From contig JAWCLX010000001.1 in NCBI GenBank assembly GCA_038850385.1, positions 31,670-55,998 of the forward strand: a stretch of DNA of 24,329 bases, in the 5' to 3' direction. The DNA comes from Candidatus Bathyarchaeia archaeon. GTDB taxonomy: Archaea > Thermoproteota > Bathyarchaeia > 40CM-2-53-6 > RBG-13-38-9. Below, one piece after another: positions 2,703 to 20,770 of this stretch (position 1 is its first letter; each line of letters opens with the position of its first letter). The notes under the pieces are model-generated. The model searched no databases. It worked only from the letters and a program-made list of their open reading frames with translations, and was not told the DNA's origin. A program made the position numbers and the translations under genes.

Positions 2703-2738
2703 GGATTCCTCTTTGAGTCACCTCTGGGTCCCGCGGAA

Positions 2739-2954
2739 CCCGCGGTAAGGTGGAGGCGACCGCCCCGTAAGCTCAGCCTGGTAGAGCTTCCGATCACGCC
2801 AGTAACGTGAGGAGACGCTGTAGAGCTGCACCCAAGGTGCGGCCATCCAGCCTATCAGGCTAAAGACAGAGACCGGAGTGTCGCTGGAGAGCCTGAGAAG
2901 GCTCGGCGAATTCAAAATAGGCTTATGCCTATGAAACTCCGGCCCGCGGGACCA
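2739..2954 (+). tRNA. tRNA-Tyr(GUA) with five introns and genome-encoded CCA
   Basis: Exons 2739-2747, 2771-2792, 2817-2823, 2872-2887, 2911-2916 and 2938-2954 join to CCCGCGG UA GCUC AGCCUGGUA GAGC U UCCGG CU GUA GA CCGGA GUGUC GCUGG UUCAAAU CCGGC CCGCGGG A CCA. This is a complete 77-nt cloverleaf with the archaeal Tyr identity elements C1:G72 and A73. Anticodon at 2820-2822. Each intron ends in a 4-nt segment complementary to the upstream exon plus a 2-nt bulge. Confidence 0.93.
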
Positions 2955-3159: not shown

Positions 3160-3254
3160 TGGCGGGCCCGGTGGGATTCGAACCCACGATCTCCGGCTGC
3201 CCTCCCTCTATGGACCGAAGGCCAGCATCTTGATCCTGACTAGACTACGGGCCC
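3160..3254 (-). tRNA. tRNA-Arg(UCG) with one 16-nt canonical 37/38 intron
   Basis: Minus strand reads GGGCCCG UA GUCU AGUCAGGAUCA AGAU G CUGGC CU UCG G|UCCAUAGAGGGAGGGC|A GCCGG AGAUC GUGGG UUCGAAU CCCAC CGGGCCC G CCA. A20 and G73 fit Arg. Intron at 3199-3214, with GAGG pairing C32-C35. TTTAT on the minus strand near 3296-3300. Confidence 0.95.
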
Positions 3255-5920: not shown

Positions 5921-6262
5921 TTGATCGAATCATTTGAGGCTCAGTACAGACAGGAGACTTGGATAAGATACTTGGTCTACAGGGATCTCAGGGACAGGGG
6001 GTACATCGTCCGTGAATCCCGTAAGGTCGACTTTGAGATCTATGGGAAGGGGGCTGAGAGGCGGCTTGTCCATATAGTCTATGAGGGTGGAGAAGCCAGT
6101 CTTCGAGAGCTGACAACCCTCGTAAGATACGCGGCAAAGCAACATAAGGAGCTGATACTTGCGGTCATAGACAGGAGAACTGACCTCGTATACTACTCTG
6201 TAGGGGAGATGGACTTCCATAGAAGACCGGCTGGTTCAGGCTGGTTCAGTCAGGGTGTGTGA
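5921..6262 (+). CDS. tRNA splicing endonuclease (EndA) C-terminal-domain protein, probably a non-catalytic structural subunit
   Basis: YLVYRDLRDRGYIV, DFEIY and KELILAVID...DLVYY fit the EndA C-terminal fold. The KYG Tyr and the post-DFxVY His are not visible. An in-frame TAG at 5906 excludes an N-terminal domain. Confidence 0.8.
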   Translation: MIESFEAQYRQETWIRYLVYRDLRDRGYIVRESRKVDFEIYGKGAERRLVHIVYEGGEASLRELTTLVRYAAKQHKELILAVIDRRTDLVYYSVGEMDFHRRPAGSGWFSQGV

Positions 6263-8774: not shown

Positions 8775-9071
8775 GTGAAACCTATGTCTGAAACACTCTT
8801 GAATATTATGGGCGCACTTACAGTGGTAAATACGGTTTTGGTTGCCTTGATCATGTACAATTTCGTACAGAGTTACAAGGCGGTCAAATCAAGATTCACA
8901 CTGGGCCTGCTGCTGTTCTCCTCTATTCTTCTTGTGCAGGTAGTCTTCTCATTACCCGTCATAGTGCTCTCAGGAATCGCCTACCCGCCTGAGGCATTGA
9001 TCTTTGATATCATAGCGGGCAGCTTTGAATTCGTAGCTCTTCTCATCTTCCTGAGGATGACCATAAAGTAA
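8775..9071 (+). CDS. Hypothetical membrane protein (about three TM helices) of the type seen downstream of this archaeal HTH family
   Basis: Hydrophobic helices; SRFTLGLLLFSSILLVQ motif; directly follows the HTH gene. Confidence 0.75.
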   Translation: MKPMSETLLNIMGALTVVNTVLVALIMYNFVQSYKAVKSRFTLGLLLFSSILLVQVVFSLPVIVLSGIAYPPEALIFDIIAGSFEFVALLIFLRMTIK

Positions 9072-9137
9072 AGTTTCTAATGTGAACGCCCGGATTCTTG
9101 ATCTGGGCTTGAAATATTAACTCCGTCTGGTAGCTTT

Positions 9138-9176
9138 TGGGATAGAAATGGATCAAAATCTGGAAATCACTTATAT
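9138..9176 (+). promoter_or_regulatory. Putative operator plus BRE/TATA upstream of the 9213 gene
   Basis: TGGGATAGAAATGG at 9138-9151 and TCTGGAAATCACTTATAT at 9159-9176; both are echoed on the minus strand at 11745-11796. Confidence 0.5.
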
Positions 9177-20664: not shown

Positions 20665-20770
20665 TGGTGGACCGGGCGGGATTTGAACCCGCGACCTTCC
20701 GGTTTCTCGGCATAGCATGCGAACCGGACGTTCTTTGGCCGAGATGTATACCAAGCTGAACTACCGGCCC
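20665..20770 (-). tRNA. tRNA-Ala(CGC) with two 14-nt introns (21/22 and 37/38)
   Basis: Minus strand reads GGGCCGG UA GUUC AGCUUGGUAU|ACAUCUCGGCCAAA|GAAC G UCCGG UU CGC A|UGCUAUGCCGAGAA|A CCGGA AGGUC GCGGG UUCAAAU CCCGC CCGGUCC A CCA. G3:U70 is the Ala identity pair. Introns at 20734-20747 and 20704-20717. Confidence 0.94.

Follow-up and report, generated by a model that had tools for sequence, protein, structure and literature searches.

A tRNA-Tyr(GTA) gene with five introns is preceded, in a genome of the Bathyarchaeia, by a short leader that carries a second copy of the 5' strand of its own acceptor stem. Such copies accompany introns at positions 8/9 to 10/11 in five tRNA genes of this genome, and among tRNA-Tyr orthologs a copy was found at every locus with the 9/10 intron. 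We propose that the leader is an acceptor-stem decoy, which lets the BHB motif of the first intron (intron 1) form. This is the explanation we consider likely; it is based on strong comparative evidence and on thermodynamic evidence of moderate weight, and both the transcription of the leader and its effect on splicing are inferred, without RNA data.

The tRNA-Tyr gene and its leader

The window, that is, the whole stretch of DNA analysed (24,329 nucleotides), belongs to a metagenome-assembled genome from hot-spring samples (1.13 Mb, 69% complete), whose relatives carry the labels Bathyarchaeia or Bathyarchaeota. The tRNA-Tyr gene and its surroundings are composed of the following features.

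2696-2702, + strand: TATA-like box TTTATTT (direct reading; conserved in the family's orthologs)
2726-2727, + strand: predicted transcription start, GG, at the pyrimidine/purine step T2725/G2726 (from TATA spacing only)
2727-2736, + strand: putative leader decoy, GGT followed by the copy of the acceptor 5' strand; complementary to positions 66-75, with predicted pairing P ~1 in the full precursor
2737-2738, + strand: AA linker that separates the decoy from the true +1
2739-2954, + strand: tRNA-Tyr(GTA) gene with five introns (gene model; orthologs 71-95% identical over the gene)
2739-2747, + strand: exon 1, C1 to A9; its G4-G7 form the central helix of the BHB of intron 1
2748-2770, + strand: intron 1, position 9/10, 23 nt; hairpin 2749-2753/2760-2764, central-helix strand 2765-2768, bulges 2746-2748 and 2769-2771
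2793-2816, + strand: intron at position 30/31
2824-2871, + strand: intron at position 37/38
2888-2910, + strand: intron at position 53/54
2917-2937, + strand: intron at position 59/60
2944-2954, + strand: acceptor 3' strand (66-72), A73 and encoded CCA (gene model, complementarity, folding); the acceptor 3' strand is contested between leader and exon 1

The shortest exons are only 6-7 nt long. Removal of all five introns yields a 77-nt tRNA-Tyr(GTA) with C1-G72, A73 and encoded CCA; ARAGORN accepts the fold of this spliced 77-mer, and 2944-2953 therefore correspond to positions 66-75 of tRNA-Tyr. In the raw window the gene was detected neither by ARAGORN nor by Infernal/Rfam. Orthologs with four or five introns are present in several families.

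Three samples of a single study, of which one may be the window's own source, yielded DNA contigs that agree with the window throughout the region of the leader and tRNA-Tyr; the leader region is therefore not an assembly artefact. Two differences among samples were observed. The C-run of the 3' trailer (2967-2968) shows an indel of 1-2 nt against the window in contigs of two samples. The possible source sample of the assembled genome (run X1) also has a contig with a relative's allele of this gene region (noted at position 2764), whose leader and exon 1 are as in locus L010; related Bathyarchaeia thus coexist in that sample.

Across the whole genome, Infernal returned 18 tRNA matches at E<=1, nearly all of them either 90-130 nt long or short fragments of multi-intron genes. 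Matches of 90-130 nt are, by their length, intron-bearing; examples are listed here.

3163-3254, - strand: long Infernal tRNA match
20668-20770, - strand: long Infernal tRNA match

No ordinary intron-free tRNA gene of ~75 nt stands out among these 18 matches. The Tyr gene, and the Lys, Asn, Thr and contig C79 tRNA genes described below, are missed by Infernal or matched only in part.

Just upstream of the gene, GGTCCCGCGG (2727-2736) is the exact reverse complement of 2944-2953, giving a duplex of 10 bp. It is composed of GGT and a copy of the 7-nt acceptor 5' strand. The duplex is not a chance match, because GGT together with the acceptor-strand copy recurs in every ortholog that has the 9/10 intron. 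The linker, counted in orthologs from the first 8 nt of the copy to +1, is 0-7 nt long and variable in sequence. The acceptor strand of this gene also contains a palindrome, CCGCGG, which allows the leader copy to fold onto exon 1 as a hairpin (2731-2745) with 6 bp in the stem and 3 nt in the loop.

The first T of TTTATTT lies 31 nt before G2727, a spacing equal to that from the TATA box to approximately -3 in plain tRNA genes of this genome. In the genes with a leader copy, the box starts 30-34 nt before the first nucleotide of the copy (a scan gave -34 for Tyr, Lys and Asn and -30 for an untyped tRNA); Thr was left out of this range, as the crude scan chose another 8-mer, and by eye its TATA lies ~29 nt before the copy. 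For about half of the plain tRNA genes, the distance from the start of the box to the mature +1 is 33-36 nt. GGT stands directly before +1 in the Tyr genes of relatives, in the initiator tRNA gene of this genome and in one further tRNA gene. Since the spacing from TATA to copy resembles that from TATA to +1 in plain genes, the copy occupies the ancestral place of +1, and the transcript should begin at GG. Transcription of the leader from 2726-2727 is inferred from this spacing alone, in the absence of RNA data; in one metatranscriptome of the same study, no contig over the tRNA-Tyr gene was found.

A sequence-only reading of the window had claimed that 2727-2736 is the exact reverse complement of 2944-2953, taken as positions 66-75, and this held both by sequence and by the gene model. 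It had also claimed that a TATA-like element at 2696-2702 puts the start at about 2726; the element held, and the transcribed leader remains an inference from spacing. The position of the copy at the ancestral +1 had been missed.

Plain A73 tRNA genes often have GGT directly before +1, which gives a predicted 3-nt leader fully paired with A73-C74-C75. Examples are the following.

C1:57603, - strand: initiator tRNA, genome G000
C5, ~9046-9170, - strand: tRNA gene
L045, L055 and L081: Tyr loci of relatives

If a GGT leader is paired in this way, RNase P of this lineage must cut inside a 10-bp helix.

Intron 1 and the acceptor stem

Intron 1 has the structure of a BHB: two 3-nt bulges on opposite strands, a 4-bp central helix (2742-2745/2765-2768) between them, and cut sites behind the second nucleotide of each bulge, which give the junction A9/G10. 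The exon-side outer helix is absent, so that the motif is of the relaxed form. The hairpin of the intron has undergone compensatory changes among orthologs. Removal of the intron restores the canonical cloverleaf, and the junction is identical in relatives that have no such intron. Because G4-G7 belong both to the BHB central helix and to the acceptor stem, these two structures are mutually exclusive.

An apparent third copy at the 3' end of the intron, considered as a sign of triple duplication, was rejected. It is the strand complementary to G4-G7 and is copy-like only through the CCGCGG palindrome (compare the Lys and Asn introns).

Leader copy and 9/10 intron in tRNA-Tyr orthologs

The order comprises 105 genomes. 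A recognisable tRNA-Tyr D-arm is present in 85 of them, from which 88 loci were read, and 20 further tRNA-Tyr loci were taken from named public genomes. Every locus with the 9/10 intron has the leader copy (38/38). In the 86 order loci whose 3' end was readable, the upstream 40 nt were scored for Watson-Crick pairing with that end. Intron-bearing loci of the order have 8-10 contiguous pairs in 17/18 cases, the exception being a locus with C>U at a central position of the copy. Loci without the 9/10 intron (n=68) have at most 5 pairs in 60 cases and a partial match of 6-7 nt in 8. The orthologs are related to each other, so these counts do not present independent events. Two genera each include a species in which intron and copy occur together and another that has neither, the remaining four introns being common to both species. 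Intron and copy have therefore been gained or lost together.

Among 22 unique Tyr orthologs, mean pairwise identity is 0.97 over the copy's first 8 nt and 0.38 over the preceding 16 nt; the nucleotides that follow these 8, together with the linker, vary in both sequence and length. The Tyr copy occurs in three variant forms: two with C>U, in which a G.U pair with the 3' strand is kept, and one in which T replaces the first G. When the Tyr, Asn and Lys sets are counted together, four variant copies arise through C>U and none through G>A, other changes being found at end positions only. A duplicate of the 5' strand automatically complements the 3' strand; the match between leader and 3' end across families is, on its own, no proof of selection for pairing.

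A different arrangement was observed in the 45 nt upstream of Tyr loci of family f2 (L016, L024, L039 and others), which have no 9/10 intron. Between a TATA-like TCTTAACTA and +1, these loci contain a hairpin like that of intron 1 in other lineages, a sequence that repeats part of the locus's own acceptor strand (CCGGGG, GTCCCGG) and, immediately before +1, CCGT-GT, which resembles the 3' half of a BHB. It is possible that these features are a relic of a lost module of decoy and intron, or they may be something else.

The same arrangement in other tRNA genes

The leaders of four further genes in this genome also contain such a copy of the acceptor 5' strand.

Contig C46: tRNA-Lys(CUU), intron at 9/10, leader copy GGC+GGGCC
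Contig C5: tRNA-Asn(GUU), intron at 8/9, leader copy GGT+GCCGCCG, 9-nt linker
Contig C3: tRNA-Thr(CGU), intron at 8/9, full 7-nt leader copy, 5-nt linker
Contig C79: untyped tRNA, intron at 10/11, GGT and copy with one C>T, 12-nt linker

In each of them the central helix of the intron uses acceptor 5' nucleotides, and the leader matches the gene's own, different acceptor strand. No leader copy is present in the 16 other tRNA genes of the genome, whose introns are located in the D-loop, anticodon arm or T-arm. Within this genome, a leader copy is thus found in 5/5 genes with an 8/9-10/11 intron versus 0/16 others. A looser first scan for double copies gave only noise, and a strict genome scan, which disallowed truncated and overlapping copies, found only Tyr; the other cases were found by a relaxed scan. 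The Lys, Asn, Thr and untyped genes were parsed by hand, because automatic BHB removal followed by ARAGORN gave many ambiguous solutions.

Orthologs of two of these genes were followed further. Intron and copy are both present in 28/28 readable Asn loci across the order, representing six families; the three nucleotides before the Asn copy vary freely (GGT, AAA, CTT, GAC, GTT) and the linker measures 5-13 nt, the copy itself being kept. For Lys, the copy is present in 14/14 loci with the 9/10 intron and in 0/10 without it. In the Asn and Lys sets the copy is 95-96% identical and the flank 39-40%.

Predicted folding with and without the leader

Folding of the tRNA-Tyr precursor without its leader (ViennaRNA) predicts the acceptor stem with P ~1 and the BHB central helix with P 0. 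With the leader included from 2726, the leader pairs with the 3' end at P ~1, the acceptor stem falls to P 0 and the central helix rises to P ~0.8. The criterion for a two-state switch is met in these predictions: the leader and exon 1 are alternative partners of positions 66-72, and the ensemble flips fully between the two when the leader is present or absent. The mean P of the central helix with versus without the leader is 0.68 versus 0.00 for 22 unique Tyr orthologs, and that of the BHB helix of 13 Lys orthologs is 0.56 versus 0.00. When the Tyr central helix is enforced, the cost is 0.0 kcal/mol if the leader is present and 6.7 if it is absent; over all five genes with a leader copy the corresponding values are 0-2.8 kcal/mol versus 6.7-9.3. 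The BHB helix of Asn has P ~0 even with the leader and lies only 2.8 kcal/mol above the optimum. In a control with shuffled leaders, 45/200 12-nt shuffles also brought the cost to <=1 kcal/mol, as the leader is GC-rich and composition alone can compete with the acceptor strand in the model. The folds, being predictions of a model, thus support the switch with only moderate specificity.

Folds of nascent Tyr fragments give the hairpin of leader and exon 1 a P of 0.7-0.95 and the BHB a P of 0.02-0.26; the Tyr BHB is predicted to be favourable only once the 3' strand exists. As this hairpin blocks the BHB in the nascent transcript, the leader could also delay splicing. The hairpin is specific to tRNA-Tyr, since no palindrome is present in the other acceptor strands. 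Once splicing is complete, the 10-bp decoy helix has a predicted advantage of 13 kcal/mol over the cloverleaf; its release therefore requires an extra step, which is only inferred.

The sequence-only reading had further proposed that the leader holds the 3' strand and frees G4-G7 for the helix of the 9/10 intron. This is supported by comparison and folding, not by experiment: co-occurrence with the 9/10 intron in relatives, put forward there as a check, was confirmed (38/38, with 60/68 intron-less loci having no match longer than 5 nt), and folds with and without the leader agree with the proposed switch. The claim that the leader shields the RNase P site until splicing is done was not shown. 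The fallback offered there, a neutral 9-nt tandem duplication, fails against copy conservation of 95-97% beside flanks of 38-40%. The problem of releasing the 10-bp decoy helix after splicing had not been noticed.

Proposed mechanism

The analysis shows how leader and tRNA sequences relate, how far they are conserved, that leader copies go with such introns in five tRNA genes, and what energies the folds are predicted to have. The mechanism that we build on them is a proposal. The first 10 bases of the pre-tRNA-Tyr transcript would serve as an acceptor-stem decoy. The BHB of intron 1 would require G4-G7 to be paired with the 3' part of the intron, which would be impossible while the 7-bp acceptor stem is closed. 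The leader, composed of GGU and a spare strand, would pair with 66-75 and displace the real 5' strand, and the full-length precursor would thereby be kept in a form that the splicing endonuclease can cut. Splicing would remove the intron partner of the real strand, which would then retake the 3' strand, and the leader would subsequently be removed by RNase P. A first RNase P cut may take place after GGU (2729/2730), leaving two copies of equal strength, and a second, after strand exchange, at the true +1 (2738/2739). The first cut is placed after GGU because the helix formed by GGU and copy is identical to the one that plain genes offer to RNase P. In Asn orthologs without GGT the copies are equal from the start, suggesting that the copy, not GGN, is the essential part. 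Both the sites and the order of RNase P cleavage are inferred.

Genes for the enzymes concerned were found. RNase P RNA is present at full length on contig C7 (RF00373, 155 bits), and two proteins match the EndA family.

5921-6262, + strand: small EndA-family protein, 113-117 aa (Pfam PF01974, E 1.6e-16)
Contig C23, 2175-2411, - strand: second, longer EndA homolog (PF01974) in a 194-aa ORF

Two such proteins are consistent with a heteromeric splicing endonuclease of broad specificity, which is a possibility drawn from family matches; catalytic residues and subunit type were not examined.

A bolder reading, for and against which we see comparable reasons, is that acceptor-strand decoys are a general, lineage-wide device in Bathyarchaeia, accompanying any 8/9 to 10/11 intron. 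With a transcribed spare acceptor strand at its very beginning, each such precursor would alternate between the cloverleaf and a fold competent for splicing. The intron would tip the balance before splicing, and tertiary structure afterwards; RNase P would cut twice, and the device would permit introns where the acceptor stem otherwise forbids them.

Alternative explanations

One alternative, which we hold to be unlikely, explains the copy as what was kept of a partial self-duplication: after the 5' module had been doubled, the old +1 region was left at the promoter, where it is needed for initiation or for a first RNase P cut on the native helix of GGN and acceptor stem, freeing of the 5' strand being a side effect. 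The placement of the copy relative to TATA, which matches that of +1 in plain genes, speaks for it, as does the GGT directly before +1 in plain genes (Tyr of relatives, initiator and another tRNA). However, this explanation gives no account of why copies are restricted to genes whose intron uses the acceptor 5' strand (5/5 versus 0/16), nor of the joint loss of copy and intron, and the copy is kept in Asn genes even though the three nucleotides before it vary. Against a role in initiation, no requirement for sequence at +4 to +10 is known for archaeal promoters.

Also unlikely is a leader that acts as a timer or quality control more than as a helper, keeping the acceptor stem open and thus excluding RNase P, CCA and other 3' enzymes and the synthetase until splicing is complete; in Tyr, the hairpin would in addition block exon 1 until the 3' end is made. 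In its favour are the predicted nascent hairpin of leader and exon 1 (P 0.7-0.95, against 0.02-0.26 for the BHB) and the acceptor stem at P 0 in the full precursor with leader. The hairpin, however, needs the palindromic CCGCGG, and the Lys, Asn and Thr strands are copied although they are not palindromic. Quality control would be equally useful for introns located elsewhere, yet genes with such introns have no copies. This reading overlaps with the decoy explanation, and the two are not mutually exclusive.

It is very unlikely that the copy is a functionless relic of a 9-nt tandem duplication. The copies are adjacent and in the same orientation, and slippage could produce them. Against this, the copy is 95-97% conserved versus 38-40% for its neighbours, in several families and three tRNA families; its internal changes are only those compatible with pairing, it is lost with the intron, and there are five parallel cases in one genome.

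In another conceivable gene model the tRNA begins with the upstream copy, and linker, second copy and intron 1 are excised together as one larger intron. This model can draw on the ancestral distance of +1 from the TATA box and on the stronger helix with the 3' end, but is all but excluded, as inspection by hand found no BHB with a 5' cut after the first copy and no U8 following it, the linker varies in length and sequence, and U8(A9) with a proper BHB always follow the second copy, removal giving a canonical tRNA.

Relation to known systems

The proposed acceptor-stem decoy resembles the flanks of split tRNAs (Nanoarchaeum equitans, Caldivirga) and permuted tRNAs (Cyanidioschyzon, Thermofilum), in which a transcribed flank outside the mature tRNA likewise pairs within the precursor and enables splicing by the BHB endonuclease (PMC4090602, PMC4033280). 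In split and permuted tRNAs one flank pairs with the other, the BHB is located at the boundary of flank and exon, and the endonuclease removes the flanks. The tRNA-Tyr leader, in contrast, pairs with mature positions 66-75 and not with the trailer, would act by competition, and would have to be removed by RNase P. Inspection of both strands at 2737-2739 revealed no second bulge or flanking helix, and MFE folds contain a continuous 10-bp helix.

Archaeal tRNA introns at non-canonical positions (for example 3/4, 20/21, 30/31, 53/54 and 59/60) have been reviewed, with up to three introns per gene (2014 review; PMC4033280). Intron 1 shares with the multiple and non-canonical BHB introns of Thermoproteales its relaxed motif and non-canonical position, and two EndA-family proteins are present here as well (PMC4033280); tRNA-Tyr has five introns, compared with the reviewed maximum of three. 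Neither positions 8/9-10/11 nor a leader element that resolves the clash of BHB and acceptor stem is mentioned in the open-access reviews searched.

RNA switches, such as attenuators and the expression platforms of riboswitches, and the leader-assisted folding of rRNA precursors employ one strand with two partners, a transient interaction with the leader deciding the fold. The proposed tRNA-Tyr switch differs from RNA switches in that it involves no ligand or ribosome, would be reset by an irreversible cut (splicing), and its output would be tRNA processing, not gene expression. Ordinary leaders removed by RNase P likewise precede +1, and this genome encodes an archaeal RNase P RNA; but they have no conserved acceptor-strand copy and do not outcompete the acceptor strand, and plain genes here have the 3-nt GGN. 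No published leader decoy was found in the open-access literature searched, most subscription papers, including the primary Thermoproteales surveys, being outside its scope. The arrangement is best filed as a variant of leader-assisted BHB splicing outside any described family, with the reservation that it is untested at the RNA level.

Significance of the proposed acceptor-strand decoys

How the splicing endonuclease gains access to BHBs that are incompatible with the folded tRNA is a question that dates from the cataloguing of non-canonical introns. A conserved competitor strand acting in cis would be, if true, a concrete answer to it. The leader copy also provides a rule for gene finders, flagging a hidden 5'-proximal intron in genes that standard tools miss, such as that of tRNA-Tyr. 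If the proposal is true, unusual processing intermediates are predicted, with a 5' end at 2730 before the final one at 2739, and the leader would present a simple natural case of strand displacement ordering the steps of RNA maturation. Decoys of this kind would then explain which positions of a tRNA accept introns.
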